DNA of 64,000 nucleotides from an uncultured virus (IMG/VR IMGVR_UViG_3300021399_000140). Lineage: Duplodnaviria > Heunggongvirae > Uroviricota > Caudoviricetes. Below the pieces are notes generated by a model that was given only the letters and a program-made list of their open reading frames with translations, did not search any database and had not been told where the DNA came from. The stretch lies in the IMG/VR virus record IMGVR_UViG_3300021399_000140. One strand, 5' to 3'. The stretch's first letter is position 1, and every line of letters begins with the position of its first letter. Below, piece by piece: positions 1 to 64,000 of this stretch. The translations under genes and the position numbers were made by a program.

Positions 1-1404
1 ATGTATGTGTCAGAAAGATTCATACATGTCTATGTGCAAGAGCCAGGAACTAATGCATTAGAGCAATATAAAGGTGTGCAAGAAGGTCTGTTCACTGACA
101 ACAACATTGAAAATGGAAGCTACATATACAAAAACATAGATCCAATATTCAATGTGCGTCTAAATGAAAACAAGACATATGAGATAACATTTGGAAATGG
201 CTTCACCGGAAAGATTCCACCAAAAGACTCAACTATATATGTGATGTATCTTGAATCTAATGGACCAGACGCTACATTAGAGCAAAATGAGATAATTGAT
301 GTGCAAATAGACCACGGTGGGCATTTGTTTGGAATAAGTGATGAAATGTACAAGCAGATGTTCAACATTGAAGATGAAGATCTTAATGACAATGCATTGA
401 ACTCACCATTGTATTCAGATCAAGCTAAATGGAGAAATGTAGCATCATCTACAAGCTCTGTTGATGAGGAGACAGTTGAAGAGATTCGTAGACATGCACC
501 AGAATGGTTCAAGACTGGAAACAGACTAGTTACAGCTTCTGACTTTGAATATTATGTGAAGAACAGATTTAGAGACAACATTGTAGATGTAAAATGCTAG
601 AACAACTGGCAATACATATCTACATTCTACTAGTGGCTTTACAATCTTGGACTTAATGGCCAAAGGACTAAACTTTCAGATGAGTCTTCAAAACGTTCAC
701 CTAATGCTACATACTATGTCAACACATATCGTCTTCAGAAACATGACTTGAAGTATGCTGATGCAGCAGATGGAAACAATGTCTATCTTTGGATAAAGAT
801 GAAGAATGATGCAGACATATACAAAGATCTTATAGATGAAGAGATATTGAACATAAAGTCGCTTACACAAGAAGCTGTATATGTCAAGCCACTAGATGTG
901 TATTTCACACCAAGCGCACTTGACAAGAATGATGCATTGCTAAATCTCATAAAAAGTGAAAAACTGCAGCAAGCATACACTAAGTATGACTAGTCATACA
1001 TTGAGATAACGCTAGAAGATAATGTCTTGTATTCAAGCAATGACATACAGAACAAAGTAGCTAACATAATACGAGAGTTTTTCTCTGAAAGAAACTTTAG
1101 TCTAGGACAAGTAGTTGACTATGCTACATTAGCAAACAAGATATTGAATGTAAGCAGCATATCAAGAATAAGAACTATATGGAAAGACAATTCAGGAACT
1201 GGCTATGCACGAATAGTCAATGGATTGTCATTTGCTACATGGACAACAGATCTGATTGACATTGGTGATGACATTGAGATTTCATCTGTGTCAAGAACCT
1301 TGGAAGCATTCCAATTTCCAAAGCTTTACCAGTCAGCTGACATTGCAAAAAGAATAAAAGTCATAAAGAAGTCAATAAGCAATGTCAACTCAATACAATA
1401 TTAA
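1..1404 (+). CDS. Baseplate wedge subunit (T4 gp6-like), 5'-truncated
   Basis: Three same-frame fragments (1..600, 748..993, 1027..1404) join through TAGs to TAA; motifs YEITFGNG.TGKIP and ETVEEIRRHAP...NRLVTASDFEYY are typical of gp6/baseplate J. Confidence 0.8.
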
Positions 1405-1439
1405 GCTAGCTAGAAGACAGTATAAGAAAGTTGTTAAAG

Positions 1440-4400
1440 ATGAACATTGGCGTTACAGATGTCGATTTAGTTAAGAAGAACAGCAATGATTTTTCATTTT
1501 CAAAAGAAGTCTTGAATGAAGTAGTTAATGAAGACTTCATGCAAGGAGCAAAAGACTTCTATTCAACATTGACTAGTGATTCAGACACAACGGCTAAGTC
1601 ATACATATGGCAAGCGTTGTCAGCTGTCACTGATGATGTTGGAGAGACATTATACTAGAATGTTCTAAACTATGTAGACAATGTGTCTGACATTGACACA
1701 TGCAGCATAAAAGCATTGCAGTCAATGGTGCAGTTGCTTGGAACAAGATACAATGTTCTTGATGGAATAGTTGAATTACCATTAGAGCTAGCAAATCTCA
1801 TTGATGTGTTTTCAATGAGAAGAGAATGTCTTGTCAATTCACAATATGTGTGTCAGTAGATGGTTGAAAAGATGAAAAGTGTTTCAGCCTTGTCTGCTGT
1901 TGACATTTCAGAGAATGATTTGATATCTAGCACAAACAAATATCGCAGTGAATCAAAATTAAGCAATGACTAGAGACTTTCTGCATAGATTTCTGCATCA
2001 CCAGCAATTGACATCAGCCAATTAGACAAAATGATGTATGATACGATTTCTGCTACTATCATGAACTTTTTAGATCTGTCATATGGAAAGATGACAGATG
2101 ACAAGCCAATCAGGACAATTCTTTCAAACAGCATACTTTGCTCAGGCTTTGACATACCAAACAAGTCACAAAGCAAGATAGATGAATACAAGACAAGATG
2201 GCATATACCACCAGAATTCAATCCAGAAGATGCAGTTGAAGACATTGAAGCAGGACTTTCAACAATAGATGACTATCAAGAGAAGTACAAAGGCCTAATT
2301 GAAATTGAATATGACAGAGAAAATGCAGCTTTGAACAAACTTGAGCCAATGACAAGATATGCATATTTCAAAGAGAAGAAAGTCAAAGAGTACTACAAGT
2401 TTGTTCAAGACTAGTATTTGCAGATTGCAGACAGATACAACAATGCTACAAAATATGATGTTGACAACACATACTTGCTGTTAGATTCATCAAAAAATGG
2501 AAAAAGTGCGCTTGTTGTTGATCCTTTGATGCAAGAAGATGGTGGCATAAAAGGATATATGGTAAATGCAGTTGTGAACAATCTGCTAGATGTCATCCAT
2601 AAAGTCCAAAATCTTCGAGAGTATTTGAAGTCACATGCTCAACGAGCATTCATGAAAGGAACATTCCTTCTCATATCATATGCTGTGAATGAGTATTTGA
2701 AGCAAAATATATATCCAACTGTCTAGAAGTTCCATACTGGTGGAGAATTTTTGTCTGCAACAAGCTTTGATGATGATGGAAGACCTATAGAATATGAAAA
2801 GATAAGTGTTGATAATGACTTAGAGTACTCTTCAGATGAGAATGTCTTAGAGCTTATTGAATATGTTGACTAGACATAGTACTTCAACATCAGAACTGAT
2901 GTAGACAACTTAAGCACAAAAGGTTTCTCTACATTGAATGGAAAGTATTGGAATGCAGAGAACACTACTAATGGTGCAGCAACATTTGTTGACTCTACAA
3001 ATGTCTTGAATTCGGCTGACAAGTCATAGATAATCATTGGAAAGCAGATGCAGTTAAATGCAATTGCTGATTTCTATGACAACATCTTGTCTAAGCCAGA
3101 AAACAAGCTTTCAAGTGGAAATACCTACATAAACAACTTCTTGACATCAGTCTTTGCTTCTGGTGCAGATGACAGCTGGTGGCATGATGCTCATAAGAAA
3201 GTCATGGCAACATTGTCAGACTAGACTAAGACAATTGACATTGACAACTATGTTGATGCAGTGTCGGCTGCTAGAACTGCAGACATAACTGAGCGAATAT
3301 TGTCAGCATTTGAATCTCCTGATGGATAGACAGTGAAGTTCTAGCTAGATCTTGCAAAGCAACAATATATAGACAGTCTATCTTCAGAATGCGACAACAT
3401 CATTGACAATCTTCGTGATTGGTTGGACAATGCTCTTGTAAACATTGATGATTTGCTAGCAACACTTGAAAGCTACCATTCATAGTTTGTCAATCTTGAA
3501 TCTAGATGTGATGTGTTGTACAATGCTTATGGATCATAGACAACTGGATTTATAGCAAATGAAGATTATTTGAAGAAGAATTTAGACAACTACATTTACC
3601 GTGCACGATTCAATTTAGACAACATACAAGAGTTTACAAGAAACAACATTATTGTTCAAGGCGACATATTAGCTTCAACACACGCTAAAATACTAAATTC
3701 ATTGCATGCATTTTGCAAAAGCACTAAGTACTTGTCACATATTAGCATAAATAGTGCATTTGATATTGCATCAATAATGCGACTTAGCATAAATGACTTC
3801 ATATATTTGACATATTCTTAGTTGTCAGCAACTAAAGAAACAGTACAGTCACAATATTATGAAGTAAGCTACAATGCTGCAGTAGAGACATTAGAAAACG
3901 CAAAGACTAAATTAGCGTTTGAAATAGAAGAAATAATTGCAGATTTGCTTGCATTGTTCAAGAGTAGACTTGACAAAATTTCATTAGGTGAATTTGATGA
4001 TTTGTCAATTCTTTTATCATCATATGACTTCTACAACGCTACATTTAGCATAGTTGACTCTATCAATTCAGTTTCAGCCGCATTAGACTATTCAGATGAT
4101 GCATGGTACAAGTATAAATGCAAGCTTTTCATGAAGTATACTGGATAGGATGTTGGAGACACTCCACATTATTATCTTGAAAACAAAGTCCATCCATCAT
4201 ACTAGATACATCCATGTCTTAGTAACTTTGTGCAGAAAGTAGATTTTTCATATCCAATAATGAACTTAGGTGGAATGGCTGATGACATACTTCAGCAATA
4301 TGAGTCCTCATTAGTCTGCTCAATAATAACATCAAATGGCTATTTGAAGGAAATGTGGAAAAATCCAATGAACAGCAACACAGACTATGTTGTAAGATAT

Positions 4401-6674
4401 GAGCAAGAGAACCACATTGACTCAAACTTGTCTGCCAACTAGTATTTTGGATGGGATGGATTGATTCATCCAGACATTCTTGCTAATCATATGATTCAAA
4501 GTACTTTAAAGACAGCAGATCTGGAAACTATTTTGTCTGGTCAAAACTTATTGTCAGATGAATATAAGAACTACAACAATATAATAGACAAGTATAAGAC
4601 AATATACAAGCAACTTACAGCATGTGACATAAAGCAATACGGTCTAGATTGGTATGGAAACTCATATATCCTTCTTTCTGGAAATAACAACAACACATTC
4701 AACAACACGCTATGGTTCAGACCTAAGAACATTCCAATACCATTCCCTGCATTTGCATACACTGATTCAAATATGGAAGAAAGCAGTATGAGCTGCTGTG
4801 CTTTCAGCCATATATCTACATCAAACACATACTTCAAGAACATTGTTCCAAAAAACATTATTGATTAGATATATGTTCCAGAAATAATAGATTTCAATTT
4901 CACTCAAGACAACACTGTTCTCATGTTTAGATGCAAAAATGCAACAACTAGCTTAGATGAACTAGTATTTGGAAAAGTAATACAAGACAAAGACAATGTC
5001 ACACCAATAAGATGGCATTTCTTGCAGGACACATTTAGCAGAATAGAGCATTTGACTTTGCCTACAGATGCAAGTTGGGAATTTGCATGCTGGTATACAG
5101 AAAGAACACAATTTGGTGTAGTGTATGTAAATGACTATGCTGAATATGCACGAGAGAAATGCAACATATATGTGTCAAAATTTGACAGACAAACAACACA
5201 TGAGAATGTTGCAACTAGTGTTGACATTTCTACTCCATATAGAAATTCTAATGTCTTTGCAGATTGTGATGTCAATGGAAAAATAGCACTTGCATATTCA
5301 TTGTCTGGAGATAGATATTCAGGAAAGCTTGATACATTGAAAGAAGATTCAATGCAGTATACTGGAAAGCAACTAGCAACAAATGACTTGCTTAGCACAT
5401 ATGGTGACACAACACTCTATAGCATAGCAGCACAAGAGATATTTGTAGCTGGAAATTCAATATTTGTGCAGAAACTAAAAGTGTACAAGCCAATGCAAGA
5501 AGCTGGATTCATTCTTGCTACAACCAACACTGACATTTCTGGAACTGGACTTATGGATGAACTTTCTGCTAATGGTGTTCTTAAGTTCAAGCTAGCTGTT
5601 CCAAGTGCTAGCATTAGTGCTGGAATAGACTTTAGGCATGTATGTCCAATACGACAAATAGAAGGATATAGATCTGATTTGACAGAGGAGACAACTGCAT
5701 ACCATTATAATACTAGTGAAGTAGCAATGTCTGGAGTTATTTCTGGTCATAATAATGTTCACTTCTTTGAGTCAGTGTACAACTAGTATCTAGCTACAAT
5801 GAATGATGAGCAATTCTATGAACTTGCTGAAGCAGAGCGTATTGGAAGAAAGAATCCAGACAAAGTAGCAATTTAGGCCAATTTTGACTACTAGCAGCTA
5901 GCACATTATGATGTAGCTAAATATCTTTCAGCAATGCGTTCAGAAGAATCTATATCTAAACATAGTGATGACATTACAGACGTATTGAAGCATAGAGGAT
6001 TTGTTCAACCATATATGATGGCAGAAGGTTCTATTCCTTAGACATATCAGTATGGTGCATATATAGTTGAAAATAGTAATGGTAAGCAAAATGCTTTTAA
6101 AGCAGATCGCAGTGCTAAGATTCTAGATAATATAAAAACAAATACTGCAGTCATAAAGCTTGATCAAAATGAAGAACTTTCAGTCAGGTGGATAAAAAGA
6201 ACAAATGGTGAAATAAAATTAGATTTTAACTCATTATTATATATTGATAATGATGATGCTTATGGCAATCTTCCAGAATGGCAAAACAATTTTAATTCAA
6301 TATTAAGTGGTAGAAATGATACTAACAAAAAAGATGTAAATGAAAGAAACAAGTTGAATCTATTCTTAAATCTTGACTATGCTGGTGAAGCAGGAATAAT
6401 CAATACTTGGTCGCAATGGAGATCATACTTAATCTACAAGAATACATGGATGGTAAAGAACATATCAGATAGTGAACCAAAATTCATTCTAGCTAAGCTA
6501 GATAGAACAAAGCTTGACAAGCCTGATGGCACAAACATTGCATAGCAAGTTGCAGGAATTGAGTATAATGATTTTCTTCTAGCATCATCTAGAAGCCAAT
6601 AGACGCAAATATAGCCAGAAACATATCTTGTTGTAGCAGAAGGACCTATATTGAGGTACATTTCTTTTGAATGA
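1440..6674 (+). CDS. Very large (~1740 aa) putative baseplate/tail structural protein
   Basis: Nine track fragments (1431-6545) share one frame separated only by TAG; ends TGA; follows the gp6-like gene. Confidence 0.6.
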
Positions 6675-16292: not shown

Positions 16293-16893
16293 GAAGCAGC
16301 TAGCTAAGAAAGCAGGAAAAGGAAAAGATCCTGCATCAGTTAGAAAGATCACTTAGCAGTTTCATGACTTGCTTCAGTCTGCTCCAACATGGAGTGAAGT
16401 CTAGGCAGAGCGTAAGCGAAAGCTAGCAGCCTTAGGAAAAGAGCCAATTGACTTGATGGCGCCAAATGGTGTCAGAAGCGCAGACATGCTTGATGACATC
16501 TACCATACAGAGACATGGCAAGCTATGCAAGTGAAGCTAGCTACTTATGGAATGACATTGCAGATTGAAGACCATGTATGGCTTTGCAACACATTAGCTT
16601 ACCATTATGGATTTTGGCCTCATACACGACTAAGATTCAAAGCATATTGCTAGCTTATATAGAAAGATTTGGATTGTTTAGCAGTAGTTGGACAAAGGAA
16701 GTTTGTCAGCTTTGTCAAGAGAGAAGCTGAATATCTTGACAAGCAGATGAAGATTGATCCACTTTATGATGTTCCAGGAAGAAGAGATGAGCTGAAAGCT
16801 TGGCTCAAGCTGCTTGATGTGATGAAAAGATGCTAGAAGAGAAATGACGCAATTAAGAAGTCAAGAAAGAAGAAGTTATGGTAGATTGGCTGA
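16285..16893 (+). CDS. Hypothetical basic protein
   Basis: Open in code 15; includes the 16453 fragment; overlaps both neighbours. Confidence 0.55.
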
Positions 16894-17993
16894 AAAGAAA
16901 GAGAATGAACGTCCTAGTTGTAGGAGCTAATGGAATGCTTGGAAGTGCAGTTCTTAAGCATTTCCAGAAAGAAAGCATGAAGAAGCATTCAAAAATCAAC
17001 AGTTGCATAGGATTGGCTAAAGAAGACTATCAGCTTGGCAGCTTCTCAACAGCTCTTGCTAGAATGTGTGAAGACAAGATGGTTGATGTAGTGATAAATT
17101 GTGCAGCATATACTGACACAGCTGGTTGTGAAGACAAGCAGAACTTAGAGAAGTCATACATAGCAAATGTCCTTGGTGTAAAGAATTTAGCTTCTACTTG
17201 TGCATACCATAAAGTGAAGCTTGTCCATATCTCAACAGACTATGTCTATTCGCAGCACTCATACATGTACTAGCCATGGATATATGAGTTTCCATGCAAC
17301 ATGTATGGCATGCAGAAGTTGCTTGGTGAAAGAGAGATGCAGCTTGAGTATGCGCATTGGCCAGAAGGACAGCTTATCTGCAGAATGTCATGGCTGTATG
17401 GAAACACAAAGAAGCATCTTTTCATGCACAAGATCTTAGCTGCAGCATATAGAGCTAGAGCATTGATGGCAGAGCAGAACAAAGATGAAGCTGTAATCAA
17501 AGCAGCAGCAGACTAGTTTGGAAGTCCATAGACAGTAGACTCTGCAGCAAGCAAAATCTTGAACTTAGTTTGTGAAGGTGTGTATGGAACAGTCAATTGT
17601 TGGACAAGCATCTTAAATGAGACAAGATTTTCTTTTGCATAGCATATACTCAAAAGCTATGCCAATATGGTTGACAGGCGTCTAGCTCCAGTTAAAGTAG
17701 AAGCATGCAAGTCAACAGACTTTGTCTCTGTTGTAGAGCATCCACTGTTCTCAGACAAGACCGGTCTGCCAAATGAATATCTTGCTTCTAATTCATCATT
17801 TTGCAAGCTTGGAAGTGGTAGAAAGTTCACAAACATGCTGCTTAAGACTAAAAACAGCATTGATGACATTCTTCTAGACTATGGTGCAATAGCTTCGTTC
17901 ATACGAGACAATGGCAATGCTCTTAAAGAGCATGTACTTGGAATGCTTGATGACAAGACAAAAGACATATTGAGCAAATTACCAGAGTAGTAA
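16878..17993 (+). CDS. rfbD: dTDP-4-dehydrorhamnose reductase (RmlD/RfbD-like SDR)
   Basis: GANGMLG, INCAAYT, HISTDYV, YGMQK (YxxxK) and D(TAG=Q)FGSP motifs. Confidence 0.85.
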
Positions 17994-20725: not shown

Positions 20726-21022
20726 ATGGAAAACGAAGAAGTCAAAAAAGAAGTAGTTGAAGAAGTAAATGAAGAGCAGATCGTCCAATCACCATTCAAG
20801 AAAGACATAGTTGACAGTGATGTGACTTTGATTGGTGACAAGTCAACTATATGCCAAGTAGTCTAGCTGCTTGCATACATACGTCATGCAATATAGAACA
20901 ACTTTCAGACTGAGATAAAGCTGAAAGTTGGCTATAAGATTGCTAATGGCACTTTCATGTTCGCTGTGAATGGTCTTGAGATTCCTGACTATCGTACACA
21001 AGAAGAGATAGAGATCAATTGA
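20726..21022 (+). CDS. Hypothetical protein
   Basis: Open in code 15 with two TAGs; ends TGA just before nrdD. Confidence 0.65.
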
Positions 21023-21036
21023 TTTTAGGAAACATC

Positions 21037-23328
21037 ATGAAGACAATATTGAAAAGAAGTGGAAAAGTAGAAGCTCTCTCAAAGAAGAAGCTTTTTGACT
21101 CTATATGCAATGCAAACAATGCTGTAGCAGAAGAAGAACGGCTAACAAAAAAGCAGATAACTAGAATAACAGAGACAGTTATTGCTTTTTGTGAAGATCT
21201 TGAAGAGCCAATTGACATTGACAAGCTTGAAGATGTCATTGAGAAGAAGTTGATGGAAGCTTAGGGATATGAAGTAGCTAAGAAGTACATCACTTACAGA
21301 TATGAGAAAGAGCGTGTCAGAAATAGCAGAAGCTTGACTGAGAAGCTCACTGCGTCAAATGTGCAGAACCAGAACGCTAATGTTGATGAGTTCTCATTTG
21401 GAGGACGTATTGGAGAGACTGCTTCATTTGTCGCTAAGCAGTATGCTCTTGACCATCTTATCTCAAAGAAGCATGTCCACAACCATGTGAACAATGAAAT
21501 CTACATACATGACCTTGACGCTTATGCAGTTGGCTCACACAACTGCCTTTCTATTCCATTTGACAAGCTTCTGAAAGAAGGATTCAACACACGCTAGACA
21601 GATGTGCGTCCTGCTGGCTCGGTCAACACTGCAATGCAGCTTGTCGCTGTGATATTCTAGCTTCAGAGCTTGCAGCAGTTTGGTGGAGTAAGCGCAACTC
21701 ATCTTGATTGGACAATGGTTCCTTATGTTCGTCTAAGTTTTTGCAAACATTATTTTGATGGATGGAGATTTATTGATTTAATGAATGGCTCAAAACTTAA
21801 AAAAGAACATAAAACAGAATTGCCAATATCTAAAGATGAAATAAGAGAACTGCCAATTGATTCTGATTGGTACAATCATGAAATTCCAGCATATACATAT
21901 GCAATGGAGAAGACGATTGAAGAGTTGAACCAAGCAGTTGAAGGAATGTACCACAATCTCAACACTCTTCAAAGCAGAAGTGGCAACTAGCTTCCATTCA
22001 CTTCAATAAACTATGGAACATGCACACTTCCTGAAGGAAGAATGGTGACTAAGGCTCTTATTGAAGGAAGCATCAAAGGATGTGGCAAGTTCCATAAGAC
22101 AAGCATATTCCCATGTGGAATATTCCAATGCATGAAAGGCGTCAACCGCAAAGAAGGTGATCCAAACTACGACTTGTTCAAACTTGCTTTGAAGAGCACT
22201 TCACTTCGTCTTTATCCAAACTACGCAAATGTTGATTGGACAGGAAACGCTGGTTATGATCCAGAGAATCCATGCACGTATTTCAGTACAATGGGATGCA
22301 GAACTGCCAATGGCTGGGACATCAACTGCGATGATCCAAAGCTTGGACAGCTTAAAGATGGACGCGGAAACATTTCACCTGTCACAATCATAATGCCAAC
22401 ACTTGCAATGCAAGCAAAAGAGAAAGTTCTAGCTGAGCGAGACAAAGACAATGCTAACAACATAGATTGGGAAGCAGGTGCTTTTTCAAAACGAGTGCAA
22501 TTAGCATTCATAAAGCTTCTTGACAAGAAGATAAATGAAGCGCGTGACATGCTTCTTGAACGTTTTGACTGGCAATGTTCTCAGCCAGCTAAGTCAGCTA
22601 AGTTCATGTATGAGAATGGAACTATGTATGGCTACAAGCCAGAAGAAGGAATTCGCTCAGCACTCAAGCATGGAACACTTGCAATTGGACAGCTTGGCCT
22701 TGCTGAGACATTGCAGATTCTCATTGGCAAAGACCACACTACAAAAGAAGGCATGCAATTAGCAGTTGAGATTGAGACTCTGTTCAAAGAGAAGTGCGCT
22801 AAGTTCAAGAAAGACAACAAGCTGAACTTTGGCGTTTACTACACACCAGCTGAGAATCTTTGTTACACTGCAATGAAGAAGTTCAAAGCACAATATGGTG
22901 AAATAAAGAACATTTCTGACCATGAGTTCTTCACAAACTCAATGCACGTTCCAGTATGGAAGAAGATGACACCATTTGAGAAAATCGACATTGAAGCTTA
23001 GCTTACTCCATATTCATCTGCTGGTTCAATAACATATGTTGAACTTGATGCTGGAACAGTTAATAATATTCAAGCACTTGAAGATCTTGTAAACTATGCA
23101 ATGGACAAAGACATTCCATACTTTGCTATAAATGTTCCATCTGACAGTTGTTCAGATTGTGGATATCAAGGCAGTATTGATGGTAACTGTCCAAAATGTG
23201 GAAGCTCAAACATATAGCGCCTTCGCAGAGTAACTGGATATCTCACTGGTTCATACAAAGATGCATTTAATCCTGGAAAGATTGCTGAAGTTGAGAATAG
23301 AGTGAAGCATAATGGACTGGAGGCTTGA
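21037..23328 (+). CDS. nrdD: Anaerobic (class III) ribonucleoside-triphosphate reductase with ATP cone
   Basis: ATP cone; YIHDLD, HNC, MGCRT, TPAENL, CxxC...CPKCG and RRVTGYL glycyl loop; TAGs fall on conserved Gln. Confidence 0.97.
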
Positions 23329-23330
23329 TT

Positions 23331-23810
23331 ATGAACTATGCTTCTATCTTAAAAGCTGACATTGCCAATGGAGAGCATTTCCGTGTCTCACTTTTTGTAA
23401 GTGGCTGCGCTCGCAACTGTCCAGGCTGTTTCAACCAAGAAGCACAAAATCCAGCTTTTGGCAAGCCATTTGATGACAAAGCTAAGAAGAAGATCTTTAA
23501 AGAGCTTGAGCATGACTGGTGCAGAGGCGTATCATTCTTAGGTGGTGAGCCATTGTCAAAGCTTTCTGACAACAGAAAAGTCGTCATTGAGCTTGCAAAA
23601 GAGATAAGAGAGAAGTTTCCTGACAAAGACTAGTGGATTTGGTCGGGGTATACACTTGAAGAGATCCAAGCTGATAACTCAATGAAAGACATCTTGAAGT
23701 ATGTAGATGTTCTTGTTGATGGACCATTCATTGAAGAGCAGAAAGACTTAAGCATTCCTTTTCGTGGAAGCAGGAACTAGCGAATCTTGAAAAGAGGAAT
23801 TGACTTTTGA
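23331..23810 (+). CDS. nrdG: Anaerobic RNR activase (radical SAM)
   Basis: SLFVSGCARNCPGCFN, GGEPL, DVLVDGPF and FRGSRN(TAG=Q)R. Confidence 0.95.
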
Positions 23811-25322: not shown

Positions 25323-25931
25323 ATGAATAGGATTAAAATTTGGTTAGCTGCAGCTGCAATGTCATTAGCAGCAGTTGGACATGCAGCAGACGCATTTGAG
25401 TTTGTGAACAGCTCTGATGGCTACAGCTACATACAGATCAATGAGAGCATTGAGTCATTTACATTCAAGTCAGATTGGCATTCTCTTGGAAATGCTGGAA
25501 GAGTTGGATATGTCGTCTACACTGCTGACATGAGTGATAAAGAGCGTGCCGTTTACATGGAAGCTAACGCCAACAATCCACAGTTTGGAAAGAACATCAA
25601 TGATGGAATAGTAGATCTTGGCTCGCTGAAAGCTGGTGACAAAGTTGGCTTCTATGAAGTTCGTCCAAATGGTGGAATTTACACATAGACATTATTTAAA
25701 GATTGGCACGATGAGAAGTGGCTTGCTTTTGACAAAAATGGCGGCCATGGCAAAGATGAGTGGATGACAATTGCTGACATCAATGTGAGCACTTCTGGAG
25801 GATCTTCAGCTGGAGCTTCAGGCGGATCATCTAGCGGCGCTCCAAGTGGTGCTCCACTTCCTGGCGCATTAGCAGTTTTGCTAGTAGGCAGCGTTGGCTT
25901 TGGCGCTTTGAAAGCTTCTAAGAAAAGATGA
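25323..25931 (+). CDS. Secreted protein with a PEP-CTERM/VPLPA-like C-terminal sorting tail
   Basis: N-terminal signal peptide; Gly/Ser linker then PSGAPLPG-ALAVLLVGSVGFGAL-KASKKR (Pro motif, TM helix, basic tail). Confidence 0.75.
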
Positions 25932-26836
25932 AATATGCATTTATAGCATTTTTCAGCATTGCATTTAGTTGCATAGCTTCATAGTTCAATCTGACTCTAG
26001 AGAATGATTGCTTCCTGCCAGACAAAAGTCTTGGCAGGGGGGATCATGACTACACGCATGGAACTGGCTTTGAGTATGTTGACAACAACTTCATACACTA
26101 CAAAGCTGGCCAGAACATGTATGCTCCAAGTGACTTGAGAAGAAGTGACCACATTGATGGTGATCGTCCATATGCCGGAATCATATATGGTGGAGTTGGA
26201 TATGATTTCTTCAGAGACTACAACCCATATTGGACGCATTACGGTGAGATTGACTTTGGAATGATTGGCCCTGCTGCATTTGCTGGACATACACAAAGAA
26301 TGATACATCGCATTCTTGGTTGCAGGGATCCAAAAGGCTGGCATAACTAGCTTCATAATGAGTTTGTAGTCAATGGACAATGGTGGGAAAAGTACAATTG
26401 GTATCTTTGTGATTATGTAGCTTTAGTTCCAAGGGCTGGTGTTCTAGCTGGAACAATCCAAGACGCATTTGAAGTTGGCTGTGACTTGAAGATAGGCTGG
26501 AATCTCAGAAATGATGCTGGAAACAACATGATGTTCAGCTCTAGCAGAAATGCAAGACCAAAGTCATTCTTTGACAAGCTAAGTGCGTGGACATATGTTG
26601 GAGCTGATGAAAGATACTATTTGTACAACCATATCTTAGAAGGCTCATTCATAAGAAACAGAGACAAAGACTTAGATGTCACAATTGAGCCATTTGTTGG
26701 AGAGCTGCAATGGGGAGCATGCATCTAGTATGAGAACTTCATTGTAAGATACTACATGTGCTTTAGGCAAGATGAGTACAAACATTAGAAGCATTCACCA
26801 AATTATGGCGGCTTGATGTTGGGCTGGTGCTGGTGA
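25928..26836 (+). CDS. lpxR: Lipid A deacylase LpxR family (DUF2219) outer-membrane beta-barrel
   Basis: Signal peptide; END, DYTHG, GQNMYAP, DRPYAG, GMIGP..., TQRMIH, PKGWHN(TAG=Q)LHNE; terminal aromatic W. Confidence 0.88.
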
Positions 26837-39305: not shown

Positions 39306-39565
39306 TAGCAATTCCTCACAACAATGCAGTTCTTTGCAAGCAATTGAACAATTCTACCAATGAAGACAAGAAAGATGGCATAGTGTTTTAGAGAGAAAAT
39401 TTGCCATTGTATGAGGTTGTAGCTGTTGGAGAGAATGTCAAAAAAATACAATTAGACGTTGGCGATGTGATTGTGACAAACTCATAGCCAACTAAGTTCA
39501 ATCTAGATGGTACAATGTTTTTCCTTATTCATGATGACCATATTGCTGGAAAGGTTCAACAATGA
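39302..39565 (+). CDS. groES: GroES/Cpn10-like co-chaperonin
   Basis: PHNNAVLCK, DGIVF, EVVAVG, VGDVIV and LIHDDHIAGKV; 87 aa. Confidence 0.7.
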
Positions 39566-40104
39566 AAACAAAACAAGAAACAACACTGAAATTCACAAAA
39601 GTAAGAAATGTGAAGTCTCCATGTCGTGCACATCCAACAGATGCAGGCATTGACTTCTTTGTTCCAGAAGACTTGTCTAAAGAAACAATTGATGAAAAGA
39701 CAGCGCTTACTAAATCAAGTGTCATGCTTAGTGTAGACAATGGAATTGTAAAAAGCATAGTGCTTGAGCCACGACAGTCAATTTTGATTCCTTCTGGAAT
39801 AAAAGTCAAAGTTCCAGATGGATATATGCTTCAGTTCAACAACAAGTCTGGAGTAGCTTCAAAGAAAGGTCTTATTGTTGGTGCTTCAGTTGTAGATGTT
39901 GGTTATGAAGGTGAATGCCATATTGATGTCCATAATGTGTCAAATAGAAGTCAAGTCATAAATGCTGGTGACAAGATTGTCCAAGCTATTCTTATTCCTG
40001 TAAGCTTTGCAATGCCAGAAGAAGTAGCTTCAGCTGAAGAGCTCTTTGCTGGAAGCAATTCAGAGCGTGGTGAAGGTGGATTTGGTTCTAGTGGAACTAA
40101 GTAA
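39562..40104 (+). CDS. dut: Trimeric dUTPase
   Basis: DAGIDF, KSG, VVDVGYEGE, GDKIVQ and RGEGGFGSSG. Confidence 0.95.
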   Translation: MKTKQETTLKFTKVRNVKSPCRAHPTDAGIDFFVPEDLSKETIDEKTALTKSSVMLSVDNGIVKSIVLEPRQSILIPSGIKVKVPDGYMLQFNNKSGVASKKGLIVGASVVDVGYEGECHIDVHNVSNRSQVINAGDKIVQAILIPVSFAMPEEVASAEELFAGSNSERGEGGFGSSGTK

Positions 40105-44615: not shown

Positions 44616-47459
44616 ATGAGCAATTCAATATTTTCAAACGCAATATATCTAGATGACATTCCAAAAGAGTAGTGGAGAGACTACATTGGAAATGGATATA
44701 GGTCTGCATGTTATTTGACGAATGCAGAGAAAGAGGGACAAGTAGTTCTTTTTGGCTTTGACACAGCAGGAAATCCAAAGACATTTGTCTGTCCATGGAA
44801 AAGCTACATCAAATACAATGTGATGTACAAGACAGATGAGACTGACATCTATGGACATTTTGTAGCGACTAAATGGTTCAAGTCAAAGTATGAGCGTGAC
44901 AATTATGTCAAAGAAGCTAATGGCATGAAGATTGTAGAGTGCTTGAAGCCAGAACAAGAGCTTCTTCATTTCTTGTTTGATGGTGAAGTCTTGAAGATGG
45001 ACTTCAACAAGCAGCCAGTCAGAATGCATTATTTCGATATTGAGACTGAGATTAGCGACTAGTTTGAGAAGCCAGTTGATGCAAGAAATCGCATCAACAT
45101 GATGACAATATATGACAGCTAGACAGAAAAGTTCTACACTTGGAGCTTGTAGAAATGCACATTAGACTTCAATGAAGATCCAATATGCAACTATCCAAAA
45201 GACAAGTTTGTTCTGTTTGACAACTTCAATGATGATGAGACTGCGCTTCTTGAGCATTTTCTTGATTGGATGGAAGACAACTATGCTGACATAAACATAA
45301 CATGGAATGGTCGAGCATATGACTTGCCATATCTTGTCAGAAGAATTGAGAATGTTCTTGGAAAAGCTGATGCTAGACGGTTGAGTCCAGTTGGAAGATA
45401 CTTCATAAAAGATGTAAATCATGACAATGAGCGTGCTGATGTAGCTGCTGACATTGAAGTGAGCATCTCTGGTCTTTTCATTGCAGACTGTCTTGTGTTC
45501 TACAGAGACAAGTTTGGTGTAGCAGGATGCACACTTGATGGTGGCTACAGCTTAGACAATGTTGGTGAGCATGAAGGTTGTGGACACAAAGTCAAGTATC
45601 AAGGAACACTTAAAGACTTGTACTTGAAAGATTGGCAGAAGTTCTATGAGTACAACCTTCGAGATGTAGACCTTCTTAAGAGAATTGATGACAAATGCAA
45701 GATGGTTCAGCTTGCAAGACAGATAACTTCATTTGGCTTGACTGACTACAACTAGATCTATGGCTCAATTGCATATCTTATTGGCTCAGTGATGGCATTC
45801 TCAAAGACTGAGATGGGTGGAAAAGTGTTCAACTCATACATGAATGAGAAGAAGCACTTTGACAGTTTTGAAGGTGCATTTGTGTTTCCAACTATTCCAG
45901 GTGTCTATAGAGATGGAATTGGATGCATTGACTTCGCTTCACTATATCCATCAAATATAAGATCAATCAATGCAAGTCCTGAGACATATGTTGGAAAGCT
46001 TCTTGTTCAGCATCTTCATGAAGATGGCAGCTTGATGGCTATTGATGAGCTTCATGAGCCAATGTTCAACATATTTGATGACAATATAGCAAAAGCTAAG
46101 ACAGTAGCTGGACTTTATCTCAAGCTTCCAAATGGAAAGAGAAAGAAAGTCACAGTTGAGCAAGTTCGCCAACTGATAGAGACACAATGCATCTACACAA
46201 CTAACAACACATTGTTCTTGAAGCATGAGAAGAAATGGGGCGTTGTAGCTAAGTGGTGTGAGCATTTCTACAATCTTCGAAAAAGCATCAAGAAAGAAGA
46301 GATGAAAGCCCTTCACAAGCTTTAGACAGAAGGCGACAAACTTACAGAAGAAGAGAAGATCTTGAATGAGACAATAGAAGAGAACTCTCATACAGGTCAG
46401 ATTGGCGTAAAGGCAATGATAAACTCCATTTATGGAATAATGGGAACTCCGCATTCTCCTATTGCAAATCCAGACATTGCTCAAAGCATCACAAGACAAG
46501 GAAGATTCTGCAATCAGACTACAGAGAAGTTCATATTGAAGCTTTTCAAAGAGAGATTTGGTCTTCCAGAAGATGTTACGACTGTAGCAGTTGGTGGAGA
46601 TACAGACTCATAGTTTGTCAACTTAGCAGCTATAAGCAACTACTTGAGAAAGCAGAAGCCAGATCTTCCAAAGCAAATATACAAATGGCCAAAAGAGTGG
46701 AAGAAGAAGTTCTGGGACATAACCAGCGACATCATTGAGAAAGATGTAAATCCATTTGTGAGAAAGCTTGTAGCTGACTATTGCCATACTACACAAAGCA
46801 ATGTTTTGACTTATGAGCTTGAGTACATGAGTGCAATTGGAATATATGAAGGAAAGAAGCACTATGCTACATTGAAGATATTCAATGAAGGAGATCCTGT
46901 TGACGTTGTTAAGTATGCTGGAATTGAGCTTAAGAAAGCGCAGGTTCCAAAGAACATGAAGACATTCCTTGCTGACATATATGATGGAGTCTTGAAGCAT
47001 GACTGGCAAGAGAAAGAGTATGATGAGTATGTCAACAAGCTTTATGAGAAGTTTGGAAAGTTCACTATTGATGAAGTGTCATTCTGGAAAGGGTACAACA
47101 CAGAAAGAACTGCTGCTGGATTCTTGACAATGAACAAAGGAACTACTGGAATAGCGAAAGCTTGCATATACTACAACTAGATAATCGAGAAGCTTGGACT
47201 TGGAAAGCAGTATGACGAGATAAGAGTTGGTGACAAAGTAAGATTTTGCTACATTGAGCCAACAAACAAGTATGGAATAAATCAGATTGCATACAAAGAT
47301 GGACAATGGCCAAAAGAATTTGCACAACTTTTCAAAGTAGACTATCATGTGATGTTCAACAAGATAATACTTGATCCATTGAAGAGGTTCAGAGAAGCTT
47401 GCCATTTTGAGACAAAAGATCCAAGCAAGCAAGTTGTGTTTGACATATTCAGTTTGTAA
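44616..47459 (+). CDS. gp43: Family B DNA polymerase (T4 gp43-like) with 3'-5' exonuclease
   Basis: FDIET, WNGRAYDLPY, YNLRDV, DFASLYPS, KAMINSIYG, GDTDS and KKHYA; six fragments joined by TAG. Confidence 0.95.
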
Positions 47460-52799: not shown

Positions 52800-52804
52800 C
52801 AAGA

Positions 52805-52811
52805 GTAAATA
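52805..52811 (+). promoter_or_regulatory. GTAAATA late promoter (portal)
   Basis: Motif recurs 7-40 nt upstream of about 13 gene starts; resembles T4 late TATAAATA. Confidence 0.65.
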
Positions 52812-52846: not shown

Positions 52847-54679
52847 ATGGCATTTTCATGGAATCCAGCTGCAGACAGACAGCAGCATTCAGCATAGCAA
52901 AATGACAGTCCATTGACTGATAGAAATCCTAACTACAACACATTCAACAGAGTGAATGATGACATAGCTAGAGCAGTGTCGTTGAAGTCAGTCATTGGAA
53001 AGAACGTAGCACAGCAAAGACCATTAGCAAATCCAATTTGGCAGACAATCTTTGGAACAGATCTGCTTGCAATGCCAGTTGCTACAAACAAGACTGAGCG
53101 AATTGCACAATACAGAAAGATATCAGAGTTCACAGAATGCCAATGGTGCTTAGATGAGATCTGTGATGACTTCTTGCATGAAGATCCTTCTACTGGAAAG
53201 ATATTGACGTTGAAACTTCCAGATGGAAAAGAGAACCTCAATGAGACAAGACGCTAGATAATACAAGAAGAGTTTGAGCGTTTCATTGGTCTTTTCAAGC
53301 TTCGTGAAGAAGGCTACACTATAATACGCCGTTTTCTTGTTGAAGGTGAGCTTGCATGGGAAAACATCATAAACAACAAGTATGAAGACAAAGGAATAAT
53401 TGGAGTAAAGTTCCTTAGACCAGAGTACTATGAGACATTGATAGACACAGTCACCGGTGAAAGAATAGGAATATTCTTTGACACAGAAAAGCTTGCTACA
53501 GACATGCGTCAGATACTTTCTAACTCATATCTTGGTTCTGCTTAGATATTCAACTCAATTGTTCCAACTACAGTGTCATTCTCTTTCAATAGAGACACTT
53601 GCATTCCATTGCTGTATTCATAGATAACTCACATTGACTCTGGCTTCTACTCACCAGATGGCATGATATGCTATCCAATACTTGAATAGACAAAGCAAGC
53701 ATATCATCAACTTGCATTGCTTCAAGATGCAGCAGTGATTCTTCGTGTCACTAGAGCTCCAGAAAGACTGTTGTTCAACATCTCAACTGGAAAGATGAAC
53801 TAGAACTACGCTGATGAGTATGTAAGAAACTTCGCAATGGGCTTGAAGCAGAAGAAAGTTGTGTCACCTGGTGGAGACATCGCAGGAGTGTACAATCCAG
53901 TCTCAATGCTTGAGTCTTACATCTTTGGAAAGTCAGATGGAAATGATGGAACTTCAATAGAGTCTGTTGGTTCATCTGCTGACTATGATCAGCTTGGTGA
54001 CATCGAGTATTTCTTAAGAAGATTCATGAAGCAACTTAAAGTTCCATTCTCTCGCTACAAGACTCCAGAAAACACAATGGAGAAGAATGACACAATAAGC
54101 CAAGAAGAGTATGCATTCTCAAGATTTGTCATTCGTCTACAAAGACGTGTTGCGCTTGGCTTCAAGAATGGTTTCATTGTAGATCTTAAGCTGCGTGGAA
54201 TGTGGGACAAGTACTAGCTTAAAGATTCAGATCTTGACATACAGTTCTCAAAGCCTGCATTGTATGACTTGTATGAGACATAGCAGCAGATTGAGACAAG
54301 AATGAACATCTACAAGTCAGTTGTTGATCAAGAAGAGTTCAGCAAGATTGTAGCAATGAAGAAGTTTCTTGGATATTCTGATGCTGATGTTGAAGAGAAC
54401 TTCAGATGCCTTATTGAAGAGAAGCAGAGAACACAACTTGCAGAATGGTATGGTGAGCAACTTAATTCTGAAGGACCAGCTGTGTTTGACAGTCCAGTCG
54501 CAATCAAAGGAAAGACTAACACCGGTGAAGAGGAAACTAAACCAGAAGGTGAGGGTGGAGAAGGAAAAGAAGGTGAAGAGGGCGAAGGCAGTGAAGGTGA
54601 AGGAGAAGGCGGAGAAGAAGGTGGAGAAGAGGAAGAGAAGAAAGAAGCTCCACCACCAGCTACATTTGGTCTTGGCTAA
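52847..54679 (+). CDS. gp20: Portal vertex protein (T4 gp20-like)
   Basis: LDEICDD, RRFLVEG, LLQDAAVILRVTRAPERLLFNISTGKM, DIEYF...LKVPFSR; acidic Gly/Glu tail. Confidence 0.93.
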
Positions 54680-54753: not shown

Positions 54754-55368
54754 TCAGTCTTTTCCTTTGTCATCAAGCAACTTGACAATCTGCTCCTAGC
54801 TGTATGCAGCTAGATTCTCAACATCAATTGGATCATCGCTGCTGTTAAGTTGCTTAAGCTCCATGTCATATTTGTGCTTTATAGCCATAAGCTCTTTCTT
54901 CTATTCTTGCTGAAACACCATTATTCGAATCTTGTCAACATATCTTTGTCGCTCTTTGTACATTGATATGAACTCAGCTATGTTGATGTGTATTCCTTCA
55001 AGAAGTTTAGCTGCAGCTTGTATTGCTTCAGGATCTACAAGATCACATGTGACAAGAGATGCATGGACATGCTTGAACAACTGCTTAGCTATCTAGATGA
55101 GATCTTCAACTTCTTTCATTGAAGAGTCCATGTCAACTAATGCTTCTGGCGCATTTCCAGATGTCTTGAGTTCATCTAGCTTCTAGTCTACTGCACTAAG
55201 ACTGCTTTTCACGCCATCATCAAGATGGCTCATAGCATCTTGTATTTCATTAGTGTCAGTCTGAAGACCATCAAGAAAGTCATCAATTGACTAGTCGTCT
55301 TTTATTCCTAACAGCTCATTTATCTTCTGCTCACTCGTCTTTGGAGCATTGTCACTCTGATTGTCCAT
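54754..55368 (-). CDS. Helical protein, possibly small terminase-like
   Basis: Open 204 aa in code 15 (MDNQSDNAPK...), missed by the track; function is a contextual guess. Confidence 0.5.
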
Positions 55369-55987
55369 AGTCATTTTCAATGTAGCTCTTTATGCATTTG
55401 TTCAAGCTTGTGTTTGGAGATATTCCAGAGTAAGATTCTAGCTCTTCTGAAAGCTTTATCAATAAGTCACGCTTTATGTTGATGTGCTTGTAGTGCTTTC
55501 CAATAACAGTGAGAAAAGCATTCCAAGCACATTGTGTGCACCAAGCAAAAGGATTTGAAAACTCAAAGTTGTAGTTCTTAAGTCCTTTTATAAGCTTGTA
55601 GTAGAAGTAGCTTGCCATGTCTTGCTTAAGCTCATATGAGTAGTTTCTGAAGTTGCTATGGTTCAAAAGCTTGTTTGCAATTGCCATCATCATCATTCCA
55701 AGCTTTTCTGATATTATTCTATTTTCAACTATCTTTGAGCTATCTCTCCAAGCTACAAGTTCAGCTTGCAACTCTTTGTTAGTGCAATAGAATCGATCTT
55801 TATTAGCAGGAACATCTTCACCTCTAGCATGTTTAGCAGCTTCTTTCTCTTTTTGCTTCTTGAGCTTCAATGCTTGCTTCTATGCTAATGTGAGTTTTGG
55901 TTTCTTTACTAATTCTTGGTTTTTGTCTACATTTTTTCTAGGACGACCTCTAGTTCTTTTTGCTTCTTTTTTCTCTATAGTTGCCAT
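55352..55987 (-). CDS. gp55: Late-transcription sigma factor (T4 gp55-like) with N-terminal AT-hook-like extension
   Basis: FYCTNKEL, IANKL..SNFRNYSY..DM and NPFAWCTQCAWNAFL; N-terminal RTRGRPRK. Confidence 0.9.
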
Positions 55988-56031: not shown

Positions 56032-56127
56032 ACAACATATATTGTACAGTACTGCGCAATACTGTATGTAAAAATGTTAAAAATCTAAAAATAATTCTAG
56101 ATTTTTGCAGAAGTAAATAGTTTAGTT

Positions 56128-57387: not shown

Positions 57388-57410
57388 GTACAATATTAAA
57401 GGAGCAAACA

Positions 57411-57833
57411 ATGAAGAACATTCAGCCATATTCAATTGCTACTAATGTAGCAAGATTCATGAATGAGTCACTTGATGAAGATGCAATTGAGCAGACAGAT
57501 GAAGCAGAAGGAAAGCTTGCTACAAACAACTTCACAGTGAAGAATGTAATGGATGTAGACACGACTGCTGGACAGAATAAAGTGACAGTTGGATCTATAT
57601 CTTAGCTCTATGGATTGCTTAAGAAGAACAATGCTACAATAGCAATAGTTGATTTTAGTCTTCCAGAAGTTCCATTATGCTTGTATGTTCAAGGTGACTC
57701 AAAGAAAGCAGCTGACAGCATAAAGTACTATGCCTCAACATTGACTAGAAGCATCAAGTCTGATGGTCCTGAAGACACAATTGACACAGATAGTGTTGAT
57801 GATAATGCAGATGATGAAGTCATAGATACATGA
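57411..57833 (+). CDS. Hypothetical acidic protein
   Basis: AAGGAG RBS; two fragments joined by TAG. Confidence 0.65.
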
Positions 57834-57848
57834 AATGAGAACAACAAT

Positions 57849-59126: not shown

Positions 59127-59142
59127 TCATTTGGAGCGGTAA

Positions 59143-62700: not shown

Positions 62701-63615
62701 ATGAAGAATTTTCCAACATTTTTAGAGTTCTTGATGGAAGAGGTTGGCATTGCAAACAATGACATCTATCTTGCTAACATGGCAAAGTCATTTGGTGACA
62801 AAGCTTGGTTCTTGAAGTACATGCCAAAAGGCATAAATATGATTGTAGACTTTGGTGGTGGAGCAGGTGAGTTTGCAGAATACTGCATGAAGAAGACCGG
62901 TGATGCCATTCGATATGTAGTCATTGACAACAACCCATCATTCTTGACAGCGGCTAAAGCTAAAGGAATAATGTGCTATGAGTCACTTCAAGACTTGAGA
63001 AATGCAGAAGGAAAGAATCTTCTTTCTGCATTGCTAGTTCTGTCATCAGTCATACATGAAGTATATTCATACAAAGATCCTTTCTATGATGATGTTGGAG
63101 TTTTCTGGTCTGACATAAAGAAATGCCAATTCAAGGCAATTGCTATAAGAGACATGAGTGTAGCAGAAAATGCATTCAAGAACATTCCAGTTGAGGCTAC
63201 ATTATGGGTGTACTAGAATGTGTTCTGCTCAGACAAAATCACTTACAAAGGAAAGACATTCGCTGAGATAACTGCAAGCTTTGAAGAAGAGTGGGGTCCG
63301 CTTTGTGATTTATAGTTGCGAAAAATCAATGTCAAGCAGCTGTTCCATTTCTTGATTAAGTACAGATATCAAGACAATTGGGAAAGAGAAGTCAAAGAAG
63401 ACTATTTGCCTGTGACACAAGACAAGTTGCAGAAATGGCTTACATCATTCATGAACTATTCGCTTGTCCATAAAGAGTCAAGCCACCTTGACTTCTATGA
63501 TGATTGTTGGACAAAAGACTTCAAGCTTAATAGACCAGACAATGGAAACTACAAGAAGACATTTCAAGCTTGGCTTAAGACACTTTCAACACACATAAAA
63601 TGGCTTGCTGCATGA
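62701..63615 (+). CDS. Class I SAM-dependent methyltransferase
   Basis: IVDFGGGAG, VIDNN, LSSVIHEVYSY, IRD and WEREVKEDY. Confidence 0.82.
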
Positions 63616-63657
63616 TGAATATGGTTTTTCTAAGCGTAAGTAAATATATACACAGTT

Positions 63658-64000
63658 ATGGACATACATAAGATTTTTGAAGATGCAATGGTAGCAGCTG
63701 GTGCTGCTGGAGGAGATGTTGTAGCTCCTAGCGCTGGAATTGGAGCTAATGATGTCTTAGGTCATTGTGACCATAAAGCAGATGGATATCTTGGAAGTGG
63801 AGATCCTGCAGGCTGCTTCCATATTCCTGGAAAATGCAAAGTTCCATTTAGACGTCATGAGATATGCAATGGTGGTGGAAAGAAGAAGAAAAAGACTTTC
63901 TACGACAAAGGAATGACTATTGTCACTGATGCTGAGCTTGACAGACCAACATTGAAAGCATTGCATGAACTAAGTGAAGAAGAGATAGAAGATTTTGTAA
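63658..64000 (+). CDS. Hypothetical protein, 3'-truncated
   Basis: ATG after GTAAATA; open to the window end. Confidence 0.6.
   Translation, partial: MDIHKIFEDAMVAAGAAGGDVVAPSAGIGANDVLGHCDHKADGYLGSGDPAGCFHIPGKCKVPFRRHEICNGGGKKKKKTFYDKGMTIVTDAELDRPTLKALHELSEEEIEDFV

Follow-up and report, generated by a model that had tools for sequence, protein, structure and literature searches.

In the 64,000-nucleotide stretch of uncultured virus DNA held as IMG/VR record IMGVR_UViG_3300021399_000140 (Caudoviricetes; the whole stretch is called the window below), TAG is not a stop: as comparison with homologous DNA shows, it is an inherited sense codon for glutamine, present in almost every gene over 124 kb of this genome. 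The window very probably belongs to a distant T4-like jumbo phage of ruminant guts that uses genetic code 15 (TAG for glutamine, TAA and TGA for stop), with TAG presumably decoded by a tRNA(CUA). We observed that under table 11 stop-to-stop open reading frames (ORFs) of at least 200 amino acids account for 14.5% of the window, a share that rises to 88.9% when TAG is taken as sense, as against 32.3% with TGA and 18.4% with TAA as sense; since coverage jumped with TAG and not with TGA or TAA, the effect is specific to TAG. The longest stop-to-stop ORF has 349 amino acids under table 11 and 1778 with TAG as sense, and ORFs of at least 150 amino acids number 28 under table 11 and 69 with TAG read through, including one of 1747 amino acids.

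A gene set was then picked mechanically, as a greedy choice of non-overlapping ORFs with TAG read through and with approximate start codons. It comprises 62 genes, which take up 97.1% of the window, and 57 of them, on both strands, carry at least one of 269 in-frame TAGs. The expectations from the sequence-only reading that long genes are broken by TAG alone and end in TAA or TGA, and that recoding runs through structural, replication, metabolic and sigma factor genes on both strands, were thereby borne out. The genes end in TGA (31) or TAA (30), and one is cut by the window end; such ends follow by construction of the ORF set, and their genuineness was checked against the C-termini of homologues. 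At the TGA of the anaerobic ribonucleotide reductase NrdD the alignment reaches residue 741 of 743 of chain 8p23_A, and at the TAA of the family B DNA polymerase PolB it reaches residue 947 of 947 in relatives, which implies that these two terminators are true stops. Among the 20,768 codons of the window there are 269 TAG, 371 CAA and 193 CAG, so that TAG, if read as glutamine, makes up 32% of glutamine codons, and glutamine accounts for 4.0% of codons counting TAG and for 2.7% without it. The guanine-plus-cytosine (GC) content is 37% (range 0.32-0.39).

The genome could be followed to the left of the window. A scan with the baseplate wedge protein found IMG/VR record G007 (60,426 nt), whose end overlaps positions 1-126 of the window at 100% and whose last ORF completes the N-terminus of the wedge protein; the 126-nt overlap and the continuity of the ORF imply that G007 is the left neighbour, from a near-identical strain. 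In G007 the coverage by ORFs of at least 150 amino acids grows from 0.44 with table 11 to 0.94 once TAG is taken as sense, and 44 of its 52 ORFs hold 213 TAGs. Taken together, window and G007 (about 124 kb) hold 482 TAGs, spread over 100 of their 113 genes. A search for neighbours past the right end of the window gave nothing, and past the far end of G007 it gave only G007 itself.

Glutamine as the residue encoded by TAG

In the public protein collection P0001, which is the NrdD of this window, has Q wherever the DNA has TAG; because public proteins are thus already translated with Q at TAG, which carries a risk of circularity, DNA loci were used as the source of homologues. Loci were accepted as standard-code when their coverage by ORFs of at least 150 amino acids gained no more than 0.06 with TAG as sense, which kept 144 of 185 loci and dropped 41. 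Over 52 TAG columns, each with at least three standard-code subjects, the mean fraction of Q was 0.25, as compared with 0.23 at the 146 CAA/CAG columns of the window and with 0-0.05 where the window encodes any other residue, and Q was the most frequent residue in 13 of the 52. The claim that TAG stands for glutamine is borne out by this enrichment. With 51 columns scored by a column-weighted log-likelihood, for which substitution profiles were estimated from the same alignments, Q reached -128.4, K -144.0 and E -153.9; on bootstrapping, Q won 1997 of 2000 replicates with all columns and 1886 of 2000 without NrdD and NrdG (43 columns).

The strongest single test for glutamine, in our judgement, is the exchange of codons with L192, a syntenic relative that is itself recoded (PolB 82% identical, 25 shared genes, 7270 aligned codons). 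Opposite 88 TAGs of the window L192 has 21 CAA, 15 TAG and 12 CAG, the rest being mostly E or K codons; opposite 208 CAA/CAG codons of the window it has 64 CAA, 31 CAG and 18 TAG, the rest again mostly K or E codons. TAG therefore swaps with CAA and CAG as these two swap with each other, and behaves as a third synonymous glutamine codon. The base which follows TAG is A in 50% and G in 9% of cases, near to what follows CAG (A 42%, G 3%) and unlike the bases after real stops.

Single positions were examined in NrdD using the standard-code loci of a first set of 103. Many of these, the NrdD-based loci L033-L112, are not relatives of the phage, with which they have only nrdD, nrdG and dut in common, and they served as standard-code controls. 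CAA or CAG was found at codons 193 and 214 in 97 of 98 loci each, at codon 324 in 99 of 100, at codon 661 in 90 of 102 and at codon 733 in 82 of 100, while codon 82 is variable. Outside NrdD, Q occupies codon 152 of the activase NrdG in 84 of 84 homologues, codon 259 of the portal in 13 of 13 standard-code relatives, codon 214 of RmlD, the conserved Q of a DQxGxP motif, in both aligned solved structures, and codon 141 of LpxR in the one solved structure (chain 3fid_A). The sequence-only reading had named eight places at which TAG would stand for a glutamine of homologues, and six of these are confirmed by the foregoing, namely NrdD 193, 214 and 324, NrdG 152, RmlD 214 and LpxR 141. The flavoprotein example is not backed, as the position is Ile in all three of the distant WrbA-type chains that align (E 0.002-0.004), and a homologue search for the methyltransferase gene, in which the TAG precedes YFT, gave no significant matches.

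Inheritance of the TAG codons

IMG/VR record G001 (51,289 nt) corresponds to positions 4058-55329 of the window, reversed, with 31 differences in 51,272 nt, and it retains 224 of 224 in-frame TAGs. Two metagenome contigs, L189 and L190 (PolB 99% identical), keep 62 of 72 aligned TAGs, the misses including alignments of paralogues. The stretch 44616-54600 is present in 20 listed runs of 12 studies, from goat, sheep, bovine or plain gut metagenomes, of which two runs may be the source of the window itself, and contigs from runs X4 and X5 differ from positions 40001-60000 by about 1% or less. At PolB codon 179 (45148..45150, + strand) the window has TAG and contigs of two other runs have CAG (T>C at 45150), the sole TAG codon affected among 40 listed differences of 627. 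Separately, contigs of a metatranscriptomic library (run X20) match positions 40014-44402 and 56147-59101 at 97-99%, and may be transcripts or carried-over DNA.

These data bear on two other accounts of the TAGs. It could be argued that they are C-to-T errors, products of misassembly or marks of a decaying, pseudogenised element, given that CAG becomes TAG by one transition and that the window comes from a metagenome assembly; the sequence-only reading had itself named such errors as what would overturn it. This account, whose chance we put at practically nil, is already refuted by the independent records: the full set of TAGs recurs identically in G001, the stretch recurs in runs labelled goat, sheep or bovine, the TAG pattern is common to close relatives too, L192, at 82% identity, still has 15 of 88 aligned TAGs in common, and the frames are interrupted by TAG alone, never by TAA or TGA. 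A reading in which the sense codon TAG means a different residue (Lys, Glu or Leu), or is read ambiguously, is very improbable. K is indeed the second most frequent residue in TAG columns (0.17), and E and K codons are the most frequent partners other than glutamine in L192; but such partners are equally frequent opposite the CAA/CAG codons of the window, and a TAG that encoded K, E or L would predict a matching fraction of about 0.36-0.39, against an observed 0.17 for K, 0.05 for E and less than 0.04 for L. Q leads K by 15.6 log units, and the invariant or near-invariant Q at NrdD 193, 214 and 324, NrdG 152 and portal 259 argues likewise for glutamine.

TAG use across gene classes and upstream motifs

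TAG makes up 0.34 of glutamine codons (82/239) in structural genes, 0.27 (34/126) in genes of replication and nucleotide metabolism (Fisher p=0.16) and 0.22 (4/18) in the two sigma factors. The number of genes without TAG is at chance in the window (5 observed, 4.6 expected from a uniform rate of TAG) and mildly raised in G007 (8 against 4.8), and the longest stretch of the window without an in-frame TAG measures 1,507 nt.

The T4 late promoter consensus TATAAATA is not enriched in the window (3 found against 3.9 expected). GTAAATA, on the other hand, has 17 copies against an expected 8.9 +/- 2.8, a number reached in 0 of 100 shuffles, and 11 of the 17 lie within 60 nt upstream of a start on the same strand. 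Such upstream zones take up 3.0% of strand positions in the window and 2.6% in G007, where they contain 12 of 17 copies. GTAAATA precedes the genes for the portal, the wedge, both sheaths, the prohead protease and gp15, genes of the fibre block and the gp55-like gene. The motif, in its longer form (A)AGTAAATA, is thus a candidate for the late promoter of this phage group, where it probably replaces TATAAATA. A TATAAT element precedes the sigma-70-like gene, a glycosyltransferase gene, radical SAM genes and the ligase gene, with 8 of 46 copies in upstream zones in the window and 3 of 21 in G007. Apart from the ligase gene, the genes preceded by TATAAT carry TAG, which implies that TAG decoding is required outside the presumed late class. 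A generic scan for sigma-70 promoters was too noisy to be of use (80 matches against 56 expected).

Code states among relatives

Retrieval by PolB gave 73 IMG/VR and 59 metagenome loci. A PolB tree was built with FastTree (49 rows, 38 distinct sequences) and carries Shimodaira-Hasegawa-like (SH-like) support only, with several long branches flagged. The window groups with L192 in a clade of nine rows (support 96), all TAG-recoded and all with at least two TAGs within PolB (range 2-15). Standard-code rows are basal, and the labelled code states need two changes on the tree; in these standard-code relatives TAG serves as stop in 28 of 155 ORFs. One standard-code relative, L227, lies on a 252-kb contig. 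A recoded sister group is formed by L220, which lies on a 432-kb contig, L208 and L206 (PolB 55% identical). Their wedge and portal genes hold 5-13 and 7-11 TAGs, respectively, and homologues of the 1747-residue protein of the window hold 33-40 in L220 and L208, while their PolB genes (941-964 amino acids, 27-31 CAA/CAG) hold none, for which the probability under uniform use is 1.2e-4 to 2.5e-6. Thus, with standard-code relatives, sisters whose PolB is free of TAG and the lineage of the window, one family holds standard, late-only and nearly complete recoding. Two further loci, L202 and L203 (PolB 61% identical, GC 0.29), reach an ORF coverage of just 0.66-0.72 even with TAG as sense, and have tRNA-Lys(UUU), tRNA-Ser(GCU) and tRNA-Gln(UUG) next to PolB; they possibly have an additional oddity of code or gene density.

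Decoding of TAG and alternative explanations

In the mechanism which we propose, an amber-suppressor tRNA(CUA), charged with glutamine by the glutaminyl-tRNA synthetase (GlnRS) of the host, would read TAG. It would most likely be encoded by the phage, somewhere in the 140 kb or more of the genome that are unseen, as suggested by analogy with published code-15 phages, where such a mechanism has precedents (Borges et al., bioRxiv 10.1101/2021.08.26.457843; Devoto et al., PMC6784885). Its transcription would have to start as soon as the cell is infected, since without the tRNA neither polymerase, helicase and primase nor the two sigma factors could be made; as a tRNA requires transcription alone, it could act ahead of any phage protein. 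Release factor 1 (RF1) of the host would be outcompeted or disabled, because the 1747-residue protein with its 26 TAGs demands near-complete read-through at each of them. That a suppressor must act early had been proposed from the sequence alone; the proposal is strengthened by the TAGs in replisome genes and in genes without a late-type motif and by the similar TAG shares (p=0.16), and we still infer it.

Several observations weigh against this picture. No tRNA was found in the window by ARAGORN or by Rfam, either at the gathering score or at E<=1, in agreement with the earlier remark that no suppressor tRNA is visible there; none was found in G001 or G007, which together with the window cover about 124 kb, the whole genome being at least 263 kb long, none in G002-G006, G008 and G009, and no suppressor tRNA among 102 family and control loci (59 + 43), fragments of recoded relatives included. 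The sole tRNAs, all normal, were in four loci: those for Lys, Ser and Gln(UUG) in L202 and L203, and those for Ile, Pro and Gln(UUG) in L044 and for Met, Arg, Thr and Ile in L035, the last two loci not being relatives of the phage. No RF-1/RF-2 (PF00472) or GlnRS (PF00749) domain was present in six-frame scans of G001-G004 and G006, and Pfam scans of 60 of 62 window ORFs and 48 of 52 G007 ORFs found no release factor or GlnRS. Because the reachable 124 kb yielded no tRNA, release factor or GlnRS, the suppressor and its decoding machinery are things that we infer. At the level of residues, Q is not the commonest residue in 39 of the 52 TAG columns, so that single positions are uncertain, as is expected for a weakly conserved residue; NrdG 103 aligns with I or V in homologues, and solved structures have T at RmlD 218 and G at LpxR 267, as well as residues other than Q at RmlD 132 and 256. 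A few TAGs that stand one to three codons ahead of a terminator (in RmlD and in the ORFs 16285-16893 and 56128-57387) are indistinguishable from stops, and the timing of genes was assumed from T4 and from the upstream motifs.

Borges et al. (bioRxiv 10.1101/2021.08.26.457843) offer a model in which recoding is a timer of late genes or lysis, early genes being written in the standard code with a later switch. The sisters L220, L208 and L206 fit it, with TAG-rich structural genes and a PolB without TAG, and an immediate-early block in standard code could lie in the unseen remainder of the genome (140 kb or more). For the lineage of the window we nevertheless consider a timer unlikely: TAG occurs in PolB, helicase, primase, recombination genes, NrdD and NrdG, ThyX and both sigma factors, structural and replication genes do not differ in TAG share, genes without TAG are at or little above the number expected by chance, and the probable lysis cluster of G007, described below, is nearly free of TAG, the opposite of the bias towards lysis genes in that model. 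It is possible, and we put it forward tentatively, that this lineage has instead finished a change of code, with TAG used alike in every temporal class, including the replisome and the sigma factors. If so, recoding could not act here as a timer of late genes or lysis, and TAG decoding would already be working when the first phage proteins are made, through a suppressor RNA transcribed at once or delivered with the DNA together with a block of host RF1, or else through a host that tolerates or supplies the reading of TAG, and the family would show successive stages of takeover, from the standard code over late genes only to all genes.

A host-side supply is, on present evidence, slightly less probable even than a timer. 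On this account the phage has no suppressor of its own, and the host or a co-infecting element decodes TAG, or the host natively reads TAG as glutamine, which would agree with the lack of a tRNA in 124 kb of the phage and in some 200 kb from recoded relatives. The unseen portion, however, exceeds half of the genome, and the bacterial loci from metagenome-assembled genomes that have the nearest NrdD are standard-code. To our knowledge there is no bacterium that reads TAG as glutamine, which also speaks against it. The share of genes with TAG (88%, 100 of 113) lies near the 90% with in-frame stops given for code-25 phages whose hosts use code 25 as well, and exceeds the clade means of 26-71% for recoded phages on standard-code hosts; of the TAG-recoded genomes, just 40% had a TAG suppressor (Borges et al., bioRxiv 10.1101/2021.08.26.457843). 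Set against this, a survey of jumbo phages gives suppressor tRNAs in 60.8% of recoded ones (PMC13037316).

Comparison with known phages

Recoding of stop codons in phages is a known phenomenon, reportedly treated also by Ivanova et al. in 2014 and Yutin et al. in 2021. The window and G007 have much in common with T4-like phages (Straboviridae-type myophages): a gp20 portal, a gp23 capsid, a gp21-type prohead protease, tail sheath, the gp25 and gp6 baseplate proteins, gp15, the gp55 late sigma factor, UvsX, UvsY and UvsW, a gp41-like helicase, PolB, NrdD/NrdG and an alpha-glucosyltransferase homologue. They differ from them in that the best-matching phage records of GenBank share 27% identity with the portal and 28% with the PolB of a relative, in a larger genome and in the supplanting of the late promoter TATAAATA by GTAAATA upstream of structural genes; T4 itself, unlike this phage, uses the standard code. 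GenBank phage records gave no DNA match to the window. As for size, the longest contig that carries the NrdD or PolB of the window itself measures 263,544 nt, and the longest with a member of the 90%-identity cluster of PolB measures 298,328 nt; relatives with an NrdD 84-95% identical come from contigs of 298-322 kb.

Code-15 clades of animal and human guts comprise Lak, crAss-like phages and the Garnet, Amethyst, Agate, Jade, Sapphire and Topaz phages (Borges et al., bioRxiv 10.1101/2021.08.26.457843; Devoto et al., PMC6784885). With these gut phages our phage shares TAG aligned with glutamine, TAA and TGA as stops, a low GC content, the animal gut, standard-code relatives within the family and shifts of code state within it; in those phages TAG is chiefly in late, structural and lysis genes, whereas here the replication genes are recoded as well. 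Lak megaphages have a GC content of 26% and at least 540 kb, against 37% and contigs of about 260-320 kb here, and Lak has regions of more than 5 kb free of TAG (PMC6784885), against a maximum of about 1.5 kb in the window. The phage is further set apart from crAss-like phages by its T4-type portal, capsid and sheath proteins, so that, judged from these features of its DNA, it is neither Lak nor crAss-like. The reachable 124 kb contained no terminase gene for a comparison with the gemstone-named clades. PMC13037316 catalogues code-15 jumbo phages from rumen and from pig and human gut, with the rumen as their richest habitat (8.75% of jumbo phages); its worked example, a Portal_GP20 gene in three pieces under table 11, resembles the portal gene here, while its survey found recoded stops missing from most regions of a genome, as opposed to almost everywhere here. 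Peptides with glutamine at TAG positions are reported for crAss-like phages (Peters et al. 2022, PMC9523058).

Gene content

The genes and motifs are collected in Table 1.

Table 1. Genes and upstream motifs of the window and of the neighbouring record G007, with their in-frame TAG codons
Feature	Record	Location	Strand	TAG	Remarks
gp6-like baseplate wedge, C-terminal part	window	1..1404	+	3	PHROG 219; N-terminal part on G007
Structural-block protein, 1747 aa	window	1431..6674	+	26	Maximum of the window
Gene without TAG	window	10531-10881	-	0	
RmlD-like reductase	window	16878..17993	+	5	Pfam, solved-structure alignments
NrdD anaerobic ribonucleotide reductase	window	21019..23328	+	6	5 in columns mostly or always CAA/CAG
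NrdG activase	window	23325..23810	+	2	Pfam
LpxR-like lipid A deacylase	window	25928..26836	+	4	Pfam
Sigma-70 family factor	window	34862..35617	+	3	TATAAT element upstream
dUTPase	window	39562..40104	+	0	
Gene without TAG	window	42438-42899		0	
Gene without TAG	window	43732-44433		0	
Family B DNA polymerase (PolB)	window	44616..47459	+	8	
GTAAATA example	window	52805..52811	+		Ahead of portal gene
T4 gp20-type portal	window	52847..54679	+	8	Portal_T4 1.3e-72
gp55-like late sigma factor	window	55352..55987	-	1	PHROG 234
Gene without TAG	window	63658-63999		0	Cut
Upstream motif (A)AGTAAATA	window	6686, 10915, 14943, 17990, 24871, 43692, 52805, 56113, 63640	+		
Upstream motif (A)AGTAAATA	window	10882, 56022	-		
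gp23 capsid	G007			2	Gp23 3.4e-78
Prohead protease	G007			1	Peptidase_S77
Tail sheath paralogue 1	G007			6	Phage_sheath_1C
Tail sheath paralogue 2	G007			16	Phage_sheath_1C
gp25	G007			4	GPW_gp25
gp15	G007			6	T4-gp15_tss
UvsY	G007			3	
UvsW-like helicase	G007			4	
gp47-like	G007			5	
gp46-like	G007			9	
Toprim primase	G007			8	
UvsX	G007			1	
DnaB-like helicase	G007			6	
ThyX	G007			4	
NAD-dependent DNA ligase, 622 aa	G007	56193-58061 (L271)		0	13 CAA/CAG (P=0.013); TATAAT 6 nt upstream

Pfam and PHROGs matches in the window further include GMP reductase, a deoxyribosyltransferase and an HD 5'-nucleotidase among nucleotide genes, the alpha-glucosyltransferase homologue for DNA modification, and RmlD, LpxR, a GNAT acetyltransferase, radical SAM enzymes and an FMN reductase as auxiliary genes. 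The latter lie in an auxiliary block of envelope and cofactor type at 16878-31397 (RmlD, LpxR, GNAT, three radical SAM enzymes and FMN reductase), and because every gene in it carries TAG, they are residents of long standing and not genes newly acquired from a host. The presence of LpxR suggests that the host is a diderm.

In G007 the ligase without TAG may be a recent acquisition or a gene required ahead of the code switch. The region 35684-38638 (L270) encodes a papain-like cysteine peptidase of 237 amino acids with 12 CAA/CAG and no TAG (P=0.018), flanked by two overlapping small proteins whose N-termini are lipobox-like (68 and 69 amino acids) and two proteins with signal peptides, and is a probable lysis cluster, nearly free of TAG.

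In the window, the gene at 43732-44433 encodes a protein of 233 amino acids which lacks TAG here as well as in L192 (222 amino acids, 0 TAG) and has GTAAATA 33 nt upstream; its product had no Pfam, PHROG or NCBIfam match. The product of 7664-9259, 531 amino acids long and rich in Ser, Thr, Gly and Cys, contains a unit of about 36 residues repeated in tandem near 8570-8833 (about 157 nt at 90% identity in the DNA) and looks like a fibre or adhesin. Genes starting at 57849, 59143 and 62701 have a similar N-terminal peptide (MK-x-F-...-W/F-L-x-E-...), which might be a targeting or cleavage signal of head-associated proteins. The products of 56128-57387 and 57849-59126 are paralogues with 32% identity; a KxDG-like motif seen by eye had suggested an RNA ligase for the latter, which found no support in PDB, Pfam or NCBIfam. 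The gene at 28827-29801 (- strand) is methyltransferase-like, with NPPY at residues 18-21 and an S-adenosylmethionine (SAM)-binding glycine loop about 150 residues further on, an order which looks permuted. The genes 37939-38511 and 39302-39565 show weak GroES/Cpn10 similarity (E 4e-4 and 7e-4, below the Pfam cut-off), the second also matching PHROG 3188 (7e-6).

Significance

Code 15 in jumbo phages of gut and rumen with a T4-type portal is already published (PMC13037316). TAG recoding of gut phages is thus known, and it is unusually complete here; what the present analysis adds is a T4-like lineage with nearly complete recoding, beside sister lineages in which it is late-only. Our literature searches, none of which was aimed at complete recoding, brought up no paper describing it, the per-clade supplement tables of Borges et al. 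aside. As annotation with table 11 breaks nearly every gene, calling the code is a practical necessity for such genomes. One T4-like family that spans several code states is a natural series for the stepwise capture of a stop codon, and it allows the late-switch model to be tested where recoding extends to replication genes. If that model fails here, phages would rewrite the reading of TAG in the host from the first minutes of infection, and would somehow have to deal with RF1.

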